Assembly: GCA_045401115.1 (NCBI GenBank)
Contig: CP174359.1
Location: 291,247-355,246, forward strand
Origin: Candidatus Phycocordibacter aenigmaticus
Lineage (GTDB): Bacteria; Patescibacteriota; Minisyncoccia; Phycocordibacterales; Phycocordibacteraceae
Length of the DNA stretch: 64,000 nt
Reading direction: 5' to 3'
Shown here in pieces: positions 18,025-56,298 of the stretch. The position numbers and the translations under genes were made by a program. The notes below the pieces were generated by a model. It saw only the letters and a list, made by a program, of their open reading frames with translations, did not search any database and had not been told where the DNA came from. How positions within the stretch are numbered: the first letter of the stretch is position 1; every line of letters starts with the position of its first letter.

Positions 18025-18108
18025 GTCTTATAAAAATTGCGCGGAGGTGAGGTAAGAAGGGTGGTTATTGAAATTGATTAAAAACCGCGATATGATACTG
18101 TCTACCGT

Positions 18109-18182
18109 AGCGGGGTGGAGGAGAGGTACCTCGGGAGGCTCATAACCTCCAGGCCCTGGTTCGATTCCAGGCCCCGCAACCA
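18109..18182 (+). tRNA. tRNA-Met/Ile2 (anticodon CAT), CCA encoded, 1:72 mismatch (A:A), short D-loop
   Basis: Manual fold: acceptor GCGGGG/CCCCGC, D-stem GAGG/CCTC, anticodon stem GGAGG/CCTCC with loop CTCATAA, T-arm CCTGG-TTCGATT-CCAGG, then A-CCA. Confidence 0.6.
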
Positions 18183-18664
18183 CGAAAAGAAATTACATAG
18201 TAATTTCCTCGTGGCGAGCCATTGGGCGAGCTACGAGTAAAAATCCCTGCTGTGCAGGGATTTTTATATTTTTGTGAGCCCCGTGATTCGCTTAGCGAAT
18301 TCTACGAGGCACATAGTTCGTATACAATAAAACTATGTCTTTTTATTATGTATATGTTTTAGAAAATGAAAATGATAAAAGTTGGTATATTGGATACACA
18401 CCAGACTTAAAGCGTAGAGTAAAAGAACATCAAAATGGGAAAGGTGGACGAACCACAAGCCTTAAAAGTGGTTGGCAACTTATGTACTATGAGTCCTATC
18501 GCAACAAGAAAGATGCGGTAGGACGTGAACAGTTTCTCAAAAGTGGTTCAGGTAGGCGATTTTTGAAAAAGCAATTAGCGCACTATCTTGGTTCACAAAA
18601 GTAACAGAGTTCTCCTGTAACAGGAGAATTTTTGTGGCGCTTCCAAAAAGTGAGATAGCGAAGC
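18183..18664 (+). mobile_element. about 480-bp insertion at the 3-prime end of tRNA-Met carrying a GIY-YIG nuclease gene, bounded by a 19-bp direct repeat of the tRNA 3-prime end (TCCAGGCCCCGCAACCACG)
   Basis: The tRNA 3-prime end plus 2 nt is duplicated at 18665-18684. A terminator hairpin follows immediately, as expected for the original tRNA terminator. Internal hairpins are at about 18240-18268 and 18609-18633. Confidence 0.45.
18335..18604 (+). CDS. GIY-YIG nuclease family protein (small, YhbQ/UPF0213-like)
   Basis: YVYVLE...WYIGYT (GIY-YIG), a conserved Arg (KRRVKEH), Glu (REQF) and Asn. 89 aa. Confidence 0.7.
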   Translation: MSFYYVYVLENENDKSWYIGYTPDLKRRVKEHQNGKGGRTTSLKSGWQLMYYESYRNKKDAVGREQFLKSGSGRRFLKKQLAHYLGSQK

Positions 18665-18684
18665 GTCCAGGCCCCGCAACCACG
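18665..18684 (+). repeat. direct repeat of tRNA-Met 3-prime end (attR-like copy)
   Basis: Exact 19-20 nt match to 18164-18184. Confidence 0.6.
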
Positions 18685-18688
18685 TTAT

Positions 18689-18720
18689 AAAAACACCGGA
18701 CATATATCCGGTGTTTTTTA
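18689..18720 (+). terminator. rho-independent terminator AAAAACACCGGA-CATATAT-CCGGTGTTTTTT
   Basis: Perfect stem followed by a T6 run, read from the sequence. Confidence 0.7.
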
Positions 18721-18744: not shown

Positions 18745-19131
18745 CTACGCAATAAACCCTACATACGTTAAGAACGCTCCCAGAACAATAGCGAGCACAC
18801 TCCATCCCATAGTCACTTCTCGTGAGGAGAATATTTTTGCGAAACCAACAATAGTGTTATGAGGAAGAAGGAATAGTGCAGCGCCTTCTATGATGGCGAT
18901 CCATCCTATAAGAGAGATTATTATCTCTGTGAATGTGCCCCATACGTTGTGGCTGATTACTATCAAAAGTCCGATAATCAGCGCCAATGCGCCGTCAAAA
19001 TAAGGGAGAAGGTAACTTCGTGTCGCCTCAGAAAGCGCCTTTTGCATACGTGCCGGGTAGAGTAGGCCGGACAGGCCACCAACAAGCGCATAAACGCCAA
19101 ATATTTTAGCGATAAGTAGTGTTATATCCAT
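18745..19131 (-). CDS. hypothetical small membrane protein (4 TM)
   Basis: Hydrophobic 128-aa ORF with no overlapping alternative. Confidence 0.4.
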   Translation of the reverse strand: MDITLLIAKIFGVYALVGGLSGLLYPARMQKALSEATRSYLLPYFDGALALIIGLLIVISHNVWGTFTEIIISLIGWIAIIEGAALFLLPHNTIVGFAKIFSSREVTMGWSVLAIVLGAFLTYVGFIA

Positions 19132-19280
19132 AGAATTATGTTAAAGGTAGTTACAATAATACCTTTCTATTCATGGTAGCAGGAAAATATGTATGCACGT
19201 GTGGGGGTGTTAGTAGTGATGGCTGTGTCGAATGTTTATTATTTTATTTCTATACCAGTGATATAATGATATTAATACTT

Positions 19281-19973
19281 ATGTCTAAACCCAGCGAAAA
19301 AAAACATGCAATTGCATTGCGGAGGAAAGGTTTCAGTATTAAGGATATTGCTGAAAAAGTTGGTGTTTCTCGAGGGTCGGTAAGTGTTTGGGTCCGTGAT
19401 ATTTCACTGTCAGGAAAACAACGCGCGCGTTTAAAACAAAAAATGATTGATGGCGGTCATGCGGGGAGACTTGCTGGAGCTGCTTGGAATAAACAGCAGC
19501 GCCTTATTAGGCTCGCAAAACATAAAGAAAATGCTCTACAGAAAATTAAAAAAGTTTCCACTCAAGATTTATTTTTTCTTGGTCTCGGTCTTTATTGGGG
19601 CGAAGGTTTTAAGTCCGAAAAGGCTTCGGCAGGCTTTTCGAATTCAGACCCGCGAGTTATTAATGTGATGGTTGTATGGCTTGAGCAATGTATGAATATT
19701 CCACGTGATAGATTGCGGATGCAAATATTCATTAGTGATACTCACCGAGGGCGAGCTCAGGTGATTGAAAGGTATTGGTTAGAGGTTACAGGTCTCCCAA
19801 AGAGTCAATGTGCTAAAATTATTTTTTTACCTAAAACTAAGAAATTTTATGAAAATAAGGATTCATACTATGGTGTGTGTACAATACGAATTCTCAAAGG
19901 GACTGAAATTAGGGATAGAATTAATAGCTTAATTCAACGCACTTTTGATGTGCATGGACAATATAGGAGGTAA
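19281..19973 (+). CDS. HTH domain protein with a LAGLIDADG-like motif (LGLGLYWGEGFK); possible homing-endonuclease-derived protein
   Basis: N-terminal HTH (GFSIKDIAEKVGVSRGSVSVWVR). About 60 aa later GLGLYWGEG aligns to LAGLIDADG, with Glu at the catalytic acidic position. It sits directly upstream of a tRNA-Met gene. Confidence 0.4.
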   Translation: MSKPSEKKHAIALRRKGFSIKDIAEKVGVSRGSVSVWVRDISLSGKQRARLKQKMIDGGHAGRLAGAAWNKQQRLIRLAKHKENALQKIKKVSTQDLFFLGLGLYWGEGFKSEKASAGFSNSDPRVINVMVVWLEQCMNIPRDRLRMQIFISDTHRGRAQVIERYWLEVTGLPKSQCAKIIFLPKTKKFYENKDSYYGVCTIRILKGTEIRDRINSLIQRTFDVHGQYRR

Positions 19974-21514: not shown

Positions 21515-21638
21515 ATTGTTCTCAATTCGGTATATATTGAAAAGAAGTCGTTTTTAGGGTATCTTTTGGGAACTGCCGAAAGGTGGTAGTGACTGTTTGT
21601 GGGTGTAAGCGTTGGTTTGCACCTACAGGTATTTATTT

Positions 21639-21665
21639 GCGGGTGTAAGGAAACCTTGCGCCCGC
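21639..21665 (+). repeat. hairpin GCGGGTG-N14-GCCCGC that mimics the tRNA-Asp 5-prime end (copy 1)
   Basis: TTGCGGGTGTAAG recurs at 21637, 21783 and, as GGGTGTAAGCG, at 21601. The true tRNA begins TTGCGGGTGTAGCTC at 21847. Confidence 0.4.
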
Positions 21666-21784
21666 GGCGAGTTGAGAGAATACACTTCCTTTTTTCCGGC
21701 GCGGCAGTGAGAATGTAAACAAGCTTCCATTCTCACTTTGCTTGGAAAAACCGCGTATTCTCGTTAAACACTTGCGGGTGTAAG

Positions 21785-21810
21785 TAAATCTTTCACCCGC
21801 TGCATTCGGA
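21785..21810 (+). repeat. hairpin GCGGGTG-N12-CACCCGC that mimics the tRNA-Asp 5-prime end (copy 2)
   Basis: Perfect 7-bp inverted repeat, read from the sequence. Confidence 0.4.
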
Positions 21811-21849
21811 AATAATGTGAAAACAAGTTTTCCCGTTATATTCCTCATT

Positions 21850-21923
21850 TGCGGGTGTAGCTCAGATGGTTAGAGCGTCCGCCTGTCACGCGGAAGGTCG
21901 TGGGTTCAAGTCCCATCACTCGC
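21850..21923 (+). tRNA. tRNA-Asp (anticodon GTC)
   Basis: Acceptor GCGGGTG/CACTCGC (with a G-U pair), D-arm GCTCAGATGGTTAGAGC, anticodon stem TCCGC/GCGGA with loop CTGTCAC, T-arm GTGGG-TTCAAGT-CCCAT. Confidence 0.8.
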
Positions 21924-21927
21924 GCAT

Positions 21928-21954
21928 AGAAAAAACCGCCGTTATGGCGGTTTT
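21928..21954 (+). terminator. rho-independent terminator AAAAAACCGCCGTTATGGCGGTTTTT
   Basis: Read from the sequence. Confidence 0.7.
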
Positions 21955-21955
21955 T

Positions 21956-22099
21956 GTGCGAGTGATGGGACTTGAACCAGAAAGGGGGTCGGGGGAACTG
22001 GGTGTTCCCCCGTGGAGGAGTTAGGCCGCAGGCCGTCATAGAACCGTGGGTTCTATGAGCGCAGCGAAGCAAGCAGTGAAACTCCCATCACTCGCGCAT
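21956..22099. repeat. about 145-bp palindromic element bounded by inverted copies of the tRNA-Asp 3-prime end (GCGAGTGATGGGA...TCCCATCACTCGC), with internal hairpins; MITE-like or att-scar
   Basis: The left arm is the reverse complement of the last about 22 nt of tRNA-Asp. The right arm is a direct copy of the last 16 nt. Internal hairpins GGGGGAACTGGGTGTTCCCCC and ATAGAACCGTGGGTTCTAT. Confidence 0.45.
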
Positions 22100-22101
22100 T
22101 A

Positions 22102-22143
22102 AATAATACAACCCGGATACGAAAGTATTCGGGTTGTATTATT
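22102..22143. repeat. exceptionally long perfect hairpin (19-bp stem, GAAA loop)
   Basis: AATAATACAACCCGGATAC-GAAA-GTATTCGGGTTGTATTATT, read from the sequence. A further inverted, diverged copy of the tRNA-Asp 3-prime end follows at 22147-22175. Confidence 0.6.
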
Positions 22144-22215
22144 TAACAGTGATGGGGGACTTGAACCCGTAGGGGATACAAAACGGTTTTATGTGTAGTG
22201 TGTAGACGACGGCAC

Positions 22216-34625: not shown

Positions 34626-34651
34626 TGCCGGATTGTCTAATGGTGGGAATG
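34626..34651 (+). repeat. truncated 5-prime pseudo-copy of tRNA-Gln (first about 25 nt) running into a hairpin
   Basis: TGCCGGATTGTCTAATGGTGGGAATG versus the intact gene TGCCGGATCGTCTAATGGCAGGACG. Confidence 0.5.
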
Positions 34652-34716: not shown

Positions 34717-34787
34717 TGCCGGATCGTCTAATGGCAGGACGCTTGGTTCTGGTCCAAGAAATCGGGGTTCGAGTCCCTGTCCGGCAA
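34717..34787 (+). tRNA. tRNA-Gln (anticodon CTG), U1:A72, 3-bp D-stem
   Basis: TGCCGGA-TC-GTC-TAATGGCAG-GAC-G-CTTGG-TTCTGGT-CCAAG-AAAT-CGGGG-TTCGAGT-CCCTG-TCCGGCA-A. Confidence 0.75.
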
Positions 34788-34811
34788 CTAAGGCCACAAA
34801 CCCGCGATAGG

Positions 34812-34856
34812 GGTTCTGGTCCAAGAAATCGGGGTTCGAGTCCCTGTCCGGCAACT
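34812..34856 (+). repeat. direct duplicate of the 3-prime 45 nt of tRNA-Gln (anticodon loop to acceptor end), att-like
   Basis: GGTTCTGGTCCAAGAAATCGGGGTTCGAGTCCCTGTCCGGCAACT is repeated 22 nt downstream of the intact gene. Confidence 0.6.
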
Positions 34857-34860
34857 AGAG

Positions 34861-34886
34861 AAAAAGCCGCTTTAGCGGCTTTTTTG
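34861..34886 (+). terminator. rho-independent terminator AAAAAGCCGCTTTAGCGGCTTTTTT
   Basis: Read from the sequence. Confidence 0.7.
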
Positions 34887-35201
34887 TTGCCGTACAAGAA
34901 CAGTGCCTGCGCACTGTTCGAGGGACTCGAACCGCCGGAGGCATGTCGCGCGCAGCGGAGCGAGCACGAAGCCGAGGCGTGGCCCGCGGTCGTTATGAAT
35001 TTTCTTACCTTTAGGTAATAAAATGAATTACGAACCGTCAGGCTCTAGCCCTGTCCGGCAGCATCTTAGGGCACCGTGACCGAAGAGGGTCATTGCCCAA
35101 GAACCTATTCTGAAATTGCATACCTGTTGAGTGCAGTAACCAGACAAAAAACCACCCAAATGGGTGGTTTTTTGTTTTTGTCTCTTAAGTTAATTAGCGC
35201 T

Positions 35202-56052: not shown

Positions 56053-56298
56053 ATGAGCACCTACGCCGTATATATAGTGTCGTGTAAAGACAATACACTC
56101 TATACCGGATATACAAATAATCTCGAACAGCGAATTAAAGCGCATAACGAAGGCGTGGGTGCAAAATACACACGCGGTAGAGCTCCGGTGACACTCGTGT
56201 ATAGTGAGACTTTTACAAAAAAAGGCGATGCCATGCGTAGAGAAATAGAAATTAAAAATCTCTCTCGACAAGAAAAACTTTTACTTATGCGTCCTTAG
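56053..56298 (+). CDS. GIY-YIG nuclease family protein (second small copy)
   Basis: YAVYIV...LYTGYT, Arg and Glu motifs. 81 aa. Confidence 0.7.
   Translation: MSTYAVYIVSCKDNTLYTGYTNNLEQRIKAHNEGVGAKYTRGRAPVTLVYSETFTKKGDAMRREIEIKNLSRQEKLLLMRP

Follow-up and report, generated by a model that had tools for sequence, protein, structure and literature searches.

We describe here a 481-bp insertion behind a tRNA-Met gene of Candidatus Phycocordibacter aenigmaticus, located in a 64,000-nt stretch of contig CP174359.1 (assembly GCA_045401115.1, positions 291,247 to 355,246 of the forward strand) that we call the window and whose own numbering is used for coordinates in this genome. The insert is flanked by two copies of the tRNA 3' end, and its sole open reading frame (ORF) encodes an 89-amino-acid (aa) protein made of a single GIY-YIG nuclease domain. 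We are highly confident that it is a mobile insertion and one member of a family of cassettes living at the 3' ends of tRNA genes in bacteria of the Candidate Phyla Radiation (CPR). The comparison of sequences further leads us to propose, with a probability of roughly 0.6 for the model as a whole, that these are homing-like selfish cassettes, driven by their own small nuclease and specific to tRNA 3' ends.

An insertion behind tRNA-Met

A sequence-only reading of this DNA had described a 19-bp duplication, composed of the last 17 nt of the tRNA and the 2 following nt, with a second copy 480 bp downstream, and had taken it for the trace of an insertion at the tRNA 3' end. Our analysis agrees: the repeat corresponds to tRNA positions 60-76 followed by CG, its copies are separated by 481 bp (the former figure being correct to within 1 bp), and it occurs exactly twice in the 64 kb, even when 3 mismatches are allowed, while 0/100 dinucleotide shuffles match. 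Between the copies, the 89-aa GIY-YIG gene and its own terminator-like hairpin are indeed as previously described, but the two hairpins counted in addition were too few, as the upstream part holds more than two and another short one lies at 18639-18665.

Syntenic relatives were obtained by searching metagenome contigs with the 232-aa protein encoded just upstream, which gave 36 loci with flanking proteins 36-81% identical (best segment). A tRNA-Met, the orthologue of the first one in the window, comes after the flanking gene in most of these loci where that sequence exists, and no GIY-YIG gene was found anywhere in the fetched locus of any of the 36. One of them, L106 (51%), provides the empty site that the earlier reading had proposed to look for, with the tRNA running straight into its terminator: tRNA-Met, then a AAGTTAAAAAC-hairpin terminator, then the same minus-strand membrane-protein gene, and nothing between. 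The hairpin found in the window 4 nt behind the distal repeat copy (18689-18718) thus stands directly after the tRNA in L106, as befits the original terminator that it had been taken for. Among these relatives, the native trailer reads ...CCCCGCAAC|AAG..., or ...AAC|ACGTTTTG in the closest one (L094), and often runs straight into AAGTTAAAAAC-hairpin-TTTT. Every same-strain contig, i.e., one whose flanking proteins are identical, has the cassette, and only more distant relatives could supply the empty site.

The 481 bp are, thus, an insertion behind tRNA-Met, with the same architecture at many tRNAs in other genomes. Presence/absence polymorphism is seen at a conserved site (L106 empty, gene absent in the 36 distant syntenic relatives), so that we are not dealing with an arrangement common to all relatives. 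Nor is the second copy an unrelated pseudo-tRNA, since distal copies are also met at the right ends of homologous cassettes behind tRNA-Asp, -Gln, -Asn, and -Met. The repeat at the window cassette is still perfect (19/19 nt). Further copies of the cassette or of the 19-mer, which had been suggested as worth searching for, were not found in the 64-kb window, and neither was another CCACG..CGTGG hairpin; homologous cassettes are present in other genomes.

A family of cassettes at tRNA gene ends

Patescibacteria sequence data contain many homologues of the cassette protein (84-95 aa, 58-76% identical). When one genome was scanned for each species (185,579 species genomes), relatives turned up in 229 stretches, the best 80 of which come almost entirely from genomes labelled as CPR lineages. 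We worked with a set of 83 non-redundant loci with homologues, nearly all labelled CPR/Patescibacteria, across which the nuclease is the sole constant gene. A same-strand tRNA ends 41-432 nt before the ATG in 63/83 loci (Gln 22, Met 21, Asp 6, Asn 6, Tyr 3, Gly 3, Glu 1, and Leu 1); several tRNAs missed by ARAGORN are intron-bearing or fragments, and 73/83 loci qualify by their junction motif.

This junction is stereotyped: the discriminator base N73 is followed by CC(A/G)CG and then by HAAA. The motif is present in 55/66 tRNAs with the gene behind them vs 6/129 other tRNAs of the same loci, and we judged five of these six matches to be spurious, the pattern falling on the acceptor end of tRNA-Asp itself. 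It was not found in the cassette-free orthologues of the window tRNA-Met. Being found at cassette tRNAs and missing from those orthologues, CC(A/G)CG is part of the cassette, whose start is at tRNA position 74 or 75; in the window, this family comparison places the cassette-specific left end already at C74/C75 (CCACG, 18180-18184). At the other side, six loci (L062, L067, L049, L069, L083, and L088) have an ORF that stops within the 5' end of the tRNA gene behind it (overlap of 10-23 nt), the stop codon being the TAG of a conserved GTAGCTCAG in several of them; the cassette, therefore, fills the entire space between two tRNA genes there.

The proteins that are nearest neighbours share their tRNA type in 38/63 cases vs 15.5 expected (maximum 28 in 2000 permutations), and two cassettes of one genome, L023 behind tRNA-Gln and L040 behind tRNA-Asn, encode proteins that are 91% identical. 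Cassette lineages are partly faithful to their target but do switch tRNA. One cassette, in L036 (2380-2400), stands in a non-tRNA context, its left border keeping about 10 nt of a tRNA-Asp 3' end (AAGTCGCGCCACG); this looks like a rare ectopic insertion that brought along a piece of its former target.

A covarying hairpin at the left end

The cassette opens with a hairpin, P1, which starts at tRNA position 74 and incorporates positions 74-78. The exact reverse complement of the junction 5-mer is found 19-48 nt downstream in 67/73 loci vs 3.7 (maximum 10) in shuffles, and the arms covary: CCACG/CGTGG in 47/49 loci, CCGCG/CGCGG in 16/19, with the same pairing in 2/3 for CCCCG and 2/2 for CACCG. 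The arm variants are interspersed among tRNA types, which means that the change occurred repeatedly. P1 keeps the same shape throughout, with a base of 6 bp, AAA bulging out on the 5' side, and an upper stem whose sequences are unrelated but still pair; the median z of its interior is -5.2. Just before the ATG, the same motif is found inverted (arm, upper stem, TTT, complementary arm) in 43/67 loci vs 0.01 in shuffles; this second hairpin, P3, and P1 bound the leader as inverted copies, with the ORF outside the pair. In the window, the fold of the whole leader reaches -68.5 kcal/mol (z = -9.35 vs dinucleotide shuffles).

The leader sense strand folds better than the antisense one. The heptamer GCGAAGC, a very stable DNA mini-hairpin, is 24-fold enriched in leaders, a hint that the hairpins act in single-stranded DNA. 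A Shine-Dalgarno-like sequence is found in only 7/73 loci; we considered leaderless mRNAs and rejected the idea, as the Asp lineage and, weakly, the window show a -10 box 6 nt ahead of the ATG, but 42/73 loci have no -10-like hexamer within 14 nt. Around the ORF, no ribozyme core (group I intron) or other Rfam family except tRNA was found, even at E<=5, and the insert sits after the tRNA and not within it, unlike a group I intron.

Hairpins are multiplied in tandem in L015 and L028. With respect to L035, to which it is otherwise 99% identical, L028 has an extra 104-nt hairpin module (2246-2350); its junction reads CTGCG where L035 has CCACG..CGTGG, and the changed dinucleotide pairs with the arm CGCAGC of the new module, which suggests a templated or concerted change between hairpin arms. 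In L058 (2765-2818), a solitary 29-nt P3-type hairpin (TTACCACGTGTTCTTTAGATTTTACGTGG) occupies the border between T-loop and T-stem within the distal tRNA-Asp copy; from its position, it looks as if the hairpin module may insert alone.

A minimal GIY-YIG protein

The cassette ORF matches the Pfam GIY-YIG family (PF01541) with E=5e-17 and 62.4 bits (cutoff 22.6); GIY-YIG is the only family returned by Pfam and NCBIfam, with no transposase family among the matches. Residues Y7, Y18, G20, R28, H32, and E65, which we presume to be catalytic from what is generally known of GIY-YIG enzymes, are among the 25 columns that are invariant in 30 homologues. The AlphaFold (AF2) model, with a mean confidence score (pLDDT) of 90.8, has the GIY-YIG alpha/beta fold. 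The closest solved structures by sequence are those of the UPF0213 proteins BH0048 (1zg2, E=5.7e-11) and EF2693 (1ywl, E=4.5e-5), whose function is unassigned; by fold, Foldseek returned the same UPF0213 proteins and SLX1 (template modelling score of 0.61-0.65, 26-35% identity), as well as the UvrC N-terminal and I-TevI catalytic domains with far lower scores.

No recombinase or integrase was found next to the cassette in the annotated neighbourhoods (L001-L008 and L089-L092). The constant covarying left end, together with the intact catalytic residues, points to the small nuclease itself as the probable mobility factor. We also considered a phage origin and did not retain it, as a viral contig collection held only distant GIY-YIG relatives (<=40% identity) and one 33-residue fragment; among known defence and phage families, PADLOC gave partial matches only (E about 0.006), and PHROGs gave none.

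Duplicated tRNA ends and signs of mobility

In about ten loci, the 3' end of the upstream tRNA has a significant distal copy, behind tRNA-Asp (L006, L026, L030, L058, L081, and L025), tRNA-Met (the window and L013), tRNA-Gln (L064), and tRNA-Asn (L015). It extends from the T-loop, where it starts at position 55/56 in most cases and at 59-63 in a few, to position 74, over 12-33 nt (12, 16, 19, 33 nt), which is not a fixed-length duplication; its distance from the stop codon is 1-6 nt in the Asp lineage vs 61 nt in the window. In L006, L026, L030, L058, L064, L081, and the window, the distal copy is that of the genome's own tRNA end, though acceptor stems differ from one genome to another, and this is true even of the orthologous loci L006 and L058, whose flanks are 83% identical. 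Distal copies must, therefore, be made from the host target or be repeatedly reset, rather than carried from a donor. Those of L013 (16/19) and L025 are decayed.

A clear sign of movement comes from L028 and L035, which share a promoter, a tRNA-Asn, and the cassette at 99% (97/97 nt at 99%, then 469 nt at 98.9%), with a neighbouring gene only 79.6% identical and unrelated downstream DNA. From these identities, and for this one pair, we read a recent transfer that apparently involved co-conversion of the flank. Nested arrangements exist as well: in L019 and L046, the order is tRNA, ORF-less insert, tRNA-end copy, and GIY-YIG cassette, and L081 has tRNA-Asp, a stretch of about 600 nt with an ORF-less element at its end, and then a GIY-YIG cassette between two copies, with a repeat of 33 nt. 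Such arrays imply either that a bare tRNA-end fragment suffices as a landing site or that unequal recombination between copies builds them.

In all the DNA fetched, 18/197 tRNAs (9%) have a near-exact copy of their 3' end within 900 nt downstream, 17 of them direct and one inverted only, and about ten of these 18 duplicated ends flank ORF-less inserts of 120-290 nt. These contain a terminator and an inverted T-arm/acceptor copy, sometimes interrupted by a hairpin, and have conserved cores of two types, GGGTCGG-hairpin-CCCGTGGAGG, with compensatory stem changes, or GCCGGAGC-ATG-hairpin. Their right ends are identical to those of GIY-YIG cassettes (e.g., CTTAGAAACTTGAC or GACTCCTGAC), with which they also have the tRNA-end direct repeat in common. 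A hammerhead-like reading of these right ends found no support in Rfam and was abandoned.

Anticodon-loop introns of 200-560 nt were also observed in many of the CPR tRNA genes beside cassettes (L035 at 1706-2265, L004, L006, L096, L100, L110, L116, and others). That of L035 contains an HNH-like zinc-finger ORF; the tRNA of L028, though 99% identical, lacks this intron. The tRNA genes of these genomes are, thus, struck by at least two kinds of selfish elements.

Proposed mechanism and alternatives

In the model that we favour, a cassette would comprise P1 from position 74, variable hairpins and terminators, the inverted P3 before the start codon, and the GIY-YIG gene (85-90 aa). In tRNA genes that lack a cassette, the putative nuclease would make a break at position 74/75 and close to the T-loop (55-60), and the break would be repaired by copying the cassette-bearing allele, that is, by homing. 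On the left, the highly conserved tRNA would be a portable homology arm; on the right, the anchor would be the following tRNA gene or a displaced T-loop-to-C74 fragment. If the break is staggered, with the sense strand cut at 74/75 and the other strand in the T-loop, it would leave 3' overhangs that both contain the host tRNA end, and priming from both overhangs on a donor with a distal copy could reproduce host-type repeats of 12-33 nt (19 nt in the window). One has to keep in mind that RNase Z cuts after N73 and that CCA is added enzymatically; from this general tRNA biology, an insert starting right after the discriminator base should leave the tRNA maturable and the host unharmed. Moreover, about a quarter of the cassettes encode CCG instead of CCA, and the cell, therefore, cannot be relying on the encoded triplet.

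Several observations weigh against this homing-like model. L028 and L035 have no visible right-hand homology just beyond the cassette, which is a poor fit to simple two-sided homing, and a recognisable distal copy accompanies only about 10 of roughly 65 tRNA-linked cassettes, so that the duplication is either not obligatory or quickly lost. The single domain spans all 89 aa and leaves no DNA-binding module, unlike known GIY-YIG homing enzymes. Protein identities of 58-76% across CPR lineages are high for a purely selfish gene, so a host function is possible; a domesticated side function may also exist. For this tRNA-Met, the relatives with an empty site are distant (36-81% flanking protein identity, 51% for L106), and the sense-strand folding and the GCGAAGC enrichment are both compatible with hairpins acting as DNA or as RNA.

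The cassette could also be a nuclease-only, hairpin-ended transposon, in which the GIY-YIG protein would act on extruded or single-stranded P1 and P3 and excise or copy the element as single-stranded DNA; insertion by position 74 after a staggered T-loop-to-74 cut would then give a true target-site duplication, with ORF-less elements and solitary hairpins as passengers comparable to miniature inverted-repeat transposable elements. We find this unlikely, even though it would account better than the homing-like model for the sharpness of the left end, for hairpins that occur singly or in tandem, and for the ORF-less passengers. Indeed, 73 loci have a sharply defined left end at position 74, inverted copies of a single hairpin motif delimit the leader, a lone 29-nt hairpin is found within the L058 distal copy, hairpins are repeated in tandem in L015 and L028, both repeat copies are host-derived in every genome, and in L081, L019, and L046, insertions into no more than a fragment of a tRNA end are nested or in tandem; the 24-fold enrichment of GCGAAGC and the fact that the closest characterised fold is that of SLX1, a structure-specific nuclease, go in the same direction. 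GIY-YIG enzymes are hydrolytic, however, with no known strand-joining chemistry, and we know of no strand-transfer activity in any of them; the duplication varies in length (12, 16, 19, 33 nt) and is missing from most copies, the ORF lies outside the P1-P3 inverted pair, and the right end is poorly defined, coinciding with the ORF end, with six ORFs running into the next tRNA. The co-converted tRNA and promoter in L028/L035 also fit recombination better.

Two further explanations were weighed. A resident CPR gene coupled to tRNA genes and not actively mobile, for instance by co-transcription or by an action on tRNA-gene DNA or tRNA 3' ends, would turn the leader hairpins into RNA regulatory or processing signals and the repeat into a by-product of tRNA-cluster rearrangement. 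The strong conservation of the protein (58-76% identity, 25 invariant columns), a highly structured leader folding better on the sense strand, the 66/73 loci without a Shine-Dalgarno-like sequence, suggestive of a special expression, the inclusion of the CCA position of the tRNA in the hairpin, and the general instability of tRNA clusters (18/197 tRNAs with 3'-end duplications) would all suit such a gene; its absence from all 36 syntenic relatives, its presence in only 229 stretches among 185,579 species genomes, its association with about eight tRNA types, with closely related copies at different tRNAs in one genome, the copy that is 99% identical between genomes 80% identical next door, and the existence of ORF-less derivatives make it very unlikely in our eyes. 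Still less credible is the mobilisation in trans by an integrase that the sequence-only reading had put forward, whereby a tyrosine or serine integrase encoded elsewhere would use the 19-nt repeat as its attachment (att) core and carry the GIY-YIG gene as cargo. Direct tRNA 3'-end repeats around an insert are the classic signature of integrase-mediated integration, and the displacement of the original terminator behind the distal copy also speaks for it. But an att crossover should leave donor sequence in one copy, and both copies are host-type despite differing acceptor stems; the repeat varies in start (56 to 63) and length (12-33 nt), the conserved covarying left-end hairpin has no role, and no integrase was called beside the cassette in any locus with annotated neighbours, the nuclease being the only constant gene across the 83 loci. 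This mobilisation is not needed and found no support.

One may also wonder whether cassettes, ORF-less relatives, and solitary hairpins belong together in a new class of mobile DNA, distinct from classical homing endonuclease genes and from transposase- or integrase-based elements, in which a structure-specific 85-aa GIY-YIG protein would be the sole mobility protein, P1-type pairing at positions 74-78 would set the insertion point, and any tRNA type would be struck via its universal T-arm/acceptor end with a host-derived duplication. We mention this as a tentative idea, on the doubtful side of plausible.

Comparison with known systems

SegB of bacteriophage T4 is a GIY-YIG homing endonuclease encoded inside a tRNA gene cluster, and its spread with co-conversion of the tRNA region has been reported (PMC2330249). 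The cassettes resemble the T4 Seg genes in being stand-alone GIY-YIG genes outside introns, between or behind tRNA genes and present or absent among relatives, and resemble SegB in the co-conversion of the adjoining tRNA region, here in L028/L035. Free-standing SegB is the nearest analogue of the cassette. The cassette enzyme differs from Seg proteins in its size (85-90 aa), in being a catalytic domain alone, in belonging to the UPF0213/SLX1 branch, and in residing in a cellular CPR genome instead of a phage; Seg proteins exceed 200 aa and carry DNA-binding modules. Further differences are the left junction fixed at tRNA position 74 with its covarying hairpin, the tRNA-end duplications, and the ORF-less derivatives, none of which has, to our knowledge, been described for Seg genes.

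With islands and prophages integrated at tRNA 3' ends, the cassette shares an intact tRNA, a 3'-end direct repeat flanking the insert, and a displaced native terminator; unlike them, it has no integrase, measures only 0.45 kb, has two host-type repeats of variable length, and starts exactly after position 73/74 and not inside an att core. The IS200/IS605 and REP/RAYT elements are similar in being tiny, with a very small protein, hairpins at or near their ends, insertion 3' of a short specific sequence, and hairpin-only relatives; the cassette departs from them in that its protein is GIY-YIG and not HUH/Y1, its target is a tRNA gene and is duplicated, and the base of its hairpin pairs with target-adjacent nucleotides (positions 74-78). 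SLX1 and the UPF0213/YhbQ proteins (PDB 1zg2, 1ywl, 7cq2, 6seh) share the fold and the catalytic core of the cassette protein. The structure-specific activity of SLX1 on branched and stem-loop DNA is in keeping with a hairpin-rich cassette, though unlike the cassette protein, SLX1 works with SLX4 and has an extra zinc-finger domain; for bacterial UPF0213 proteins, we know of no function or tRNA linkage. Eco29kI and Cfr42I, finally, are GIY-YIG restriction enzymes acting on CCGCGG, larger, oligomeric, sequence-specific, and partnered with a methylase. They have in common with the cassette the GIY-YIG domain and a CCGCG/CGCGG-type word, but the cassette word varies (CCACG, CCGCG, CCCCG, CACCG), its pairing being conserved and not its sequence.

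Full-text searches retrieved no published description of tRNA-linked GIY-YIG cassettes in CPR bacteria; subscription journals were incompletely covered, and an earlier description is possible. A GIY-YIG protein is merely listed among transferred Patescibacteria genes in one article (PMC12455944).

Annotation of the locus and other features of the window

The features of the locus are listed in Table 1, together with the sequences of the reconstructed empty site and of the junctions expected if the cassette is lost or joined end to end. The Rfam tRNA model covers 18109-18179 of tRNA-Met with 56 bits; at both gathering and permissive thresholds, the Rfam families matched in the window are tRNAs and generic long-hairpin (miRNA-like) noise only. 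The terminator-like hairpin at 18237-18267 likely ends the tRNA transcript, and the native terminator is apparently bidirectional, common to the tRNA and the convergent gene at 18745-19131.

Two other tRNAs of the window are followed by ORF-less inserts. The core of the tRNA-Asp insert is also found, with compensatory stem changes, behind tRNAs in L019, L029, L046, L097, and L116, and a second terminator comes after the 16-nt direct copy (region 21851-22146); the GCCGGAGGCATG core of the tRNA-Gln insert is also present in L100, L101, L110, L119, L126, and L079. With tRNA-Met, three of the five window tRNAs are, thus, marked by such events. Upstream, the first 19 nt of tRNA-Gln are copied 91 nt before the gene (34626-34644), and the 5' end of tRNA-Asp with its 2-3 preceding bases (TTGCGGGTGTAAG) has three copies at about 21598, 21636, and 21782 (region 21598-21860), a pattern suggesting that insertions or duplications may happen at tRNA 5' ends too.

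A second small GIY-YIG gene (56053-56298), UPF0213-like, encodes an 81-aa protein 37% identical to the cassette protein; it lies between genes for an ABC-F ATPase and an endonuclease/exonuclease/phosphatase-like protein, and has neither a tRNA nor a hairpin leader. The interval between the two tRNA-Met genes contains a gene (19173-19973) for a 266-aa protein that bears an HTH_23 domain at its N-terminus. Relatives have other genes at this spot, with no detectable similarity among them, one being a LAGLIDADG_3 ORF in L006; we rejected the reading of the 266-aa protein as a LAGLIDADG enzyme, as it has no similarity to the L006 ORF and no PDB relative. The Met-Met-Asp tRNA cluster is compact in some relatives (L128) or expanded by different inserts in others.

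Table 1. Features of the tRNA-Met cassette and of the ORF-less inserts, in window coordinates.
Feature	Position	Strand	Remarks
Promoter-like site of the tRNA-Met gene, TTGAAA-17-TATGAT	18068..18096	+	10/12 consensus matches, 12 nt before the tRNA start; consensus match only
tRNA-Met(CAT), intact	18109..18182	+	ARAGORN; A1:A72 mismatch (initiator-like), N73 = 18179, CCA = 18180-18182
Proximal copy of the 19-nt direct repeat, TCCAGGCCCCGCAACCACG	18166..18184	+	tRNA positions 60-76 + CG
Hairpin P1, base CCACGA/TCGTGG, AAA internal loop	18180..18214	+	Upper stem GAAATTAC-ATA-GTAATTTC; begins at tRNA position 74
Inserted cassette, delimited by the repeat	18185..18665	+	481 bp (500 start to start)
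Alternative hairpin in the leader	18208-18237		
Terminator-like hairpin inside the cassette	18237..18267	+	14 bp, then T-run
Pre-ORF hairpin, GTGAGCCCCGTG..ACGAGGCAC around ATTCGC-TTA-GCGAAT	18274..18312	+	Counterpart of family P3 (P1 motif inverted)
GIY-YIG nuclease gene, 89 aa, single domain (UPF0213/SLX1-like)	18335..18604	+	No Shine-Dalgarno-like sequence
Post-ORF terminator-like hairpin, TTCTCCTG-TAA-CAGGAGAA (18610-18628), and T-run	18610..18633	+	Read directly; self-complementary match
Right-end hairpin CGCTTC..GAAGCG with words GTGAGAT and GCGAAGC	18639..18665	+	Both words are found again in the right ends of related elements
Distal copy of the 19-nt repeat, TCCAGGCCCCGCAACCACG	18666..18684	+	Displaced original tRNA 3' end
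Native terminator hairpin, A-tract and T-tract	18689..18718	.	4 nt after the distal copy; same place directly after the tRNA in L106, L111, L120
Sequence 3' of the tRNA-Met gene in the reconstructed empty site			TTATAAAAACACCGG
Junction expected from precise cassette loss			CCCCGCAACCACG joined to TTATAAAAAC
Right-end-to-left-end junction (circle or tandem)			GCGAAGCG-TCCAGGCCCCGCAACCACG-AAAAGAAATT
ORF-less insert (157 nt) behind tRNA-Asp (21851-21925)	21927..22082	+	Then 16-nt direct copy of the tRNA 3' end, 22083-22098
Inside the tRNA-Asp insert			Terminator; 22-nt inverted tRNA 3'-end copy, 21957-21978; conserved hairpin GGGTCGGGGGAAC..GTTCCCCCGTGGAGG, 21986-22018
ORF-less inserts behind tRNA-Gln (34717-34788)	34789..35062	+	23-nt spacer; 44-nt copy of the 3' half, 34812-34855; terminator
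tRNA-Gln insert, continued			Inverted T-arm/acceptor copy split by a hairpin, 34886-34933; GCCGGAGGCATG core; partial third 3' copy, 35049-35062

Significance

We know of no function assigned to UPF0213/YhbQ-like proteins, although structures have been solved since 2005. If the homing-like model is true, these smallest GIY-YIG proteins would gain a biological role in at least one branch, that of driving a 0.45-kb selfish cassette to the ends of tRNA genes. It would also explain why the tRNA clusters of CPR bacteria are expanded and littered with tRNA-end fragments. The cassettes would offer a natural example of a covarying hairpin that incorporates the CCA position and marks the insertion point, and a domain-minimal nuclease finding its site by nucleic-acid structure, and not through a protein DNA-binding domain, would be of interest to research on mobile DNA as well as to enzyme engineering.

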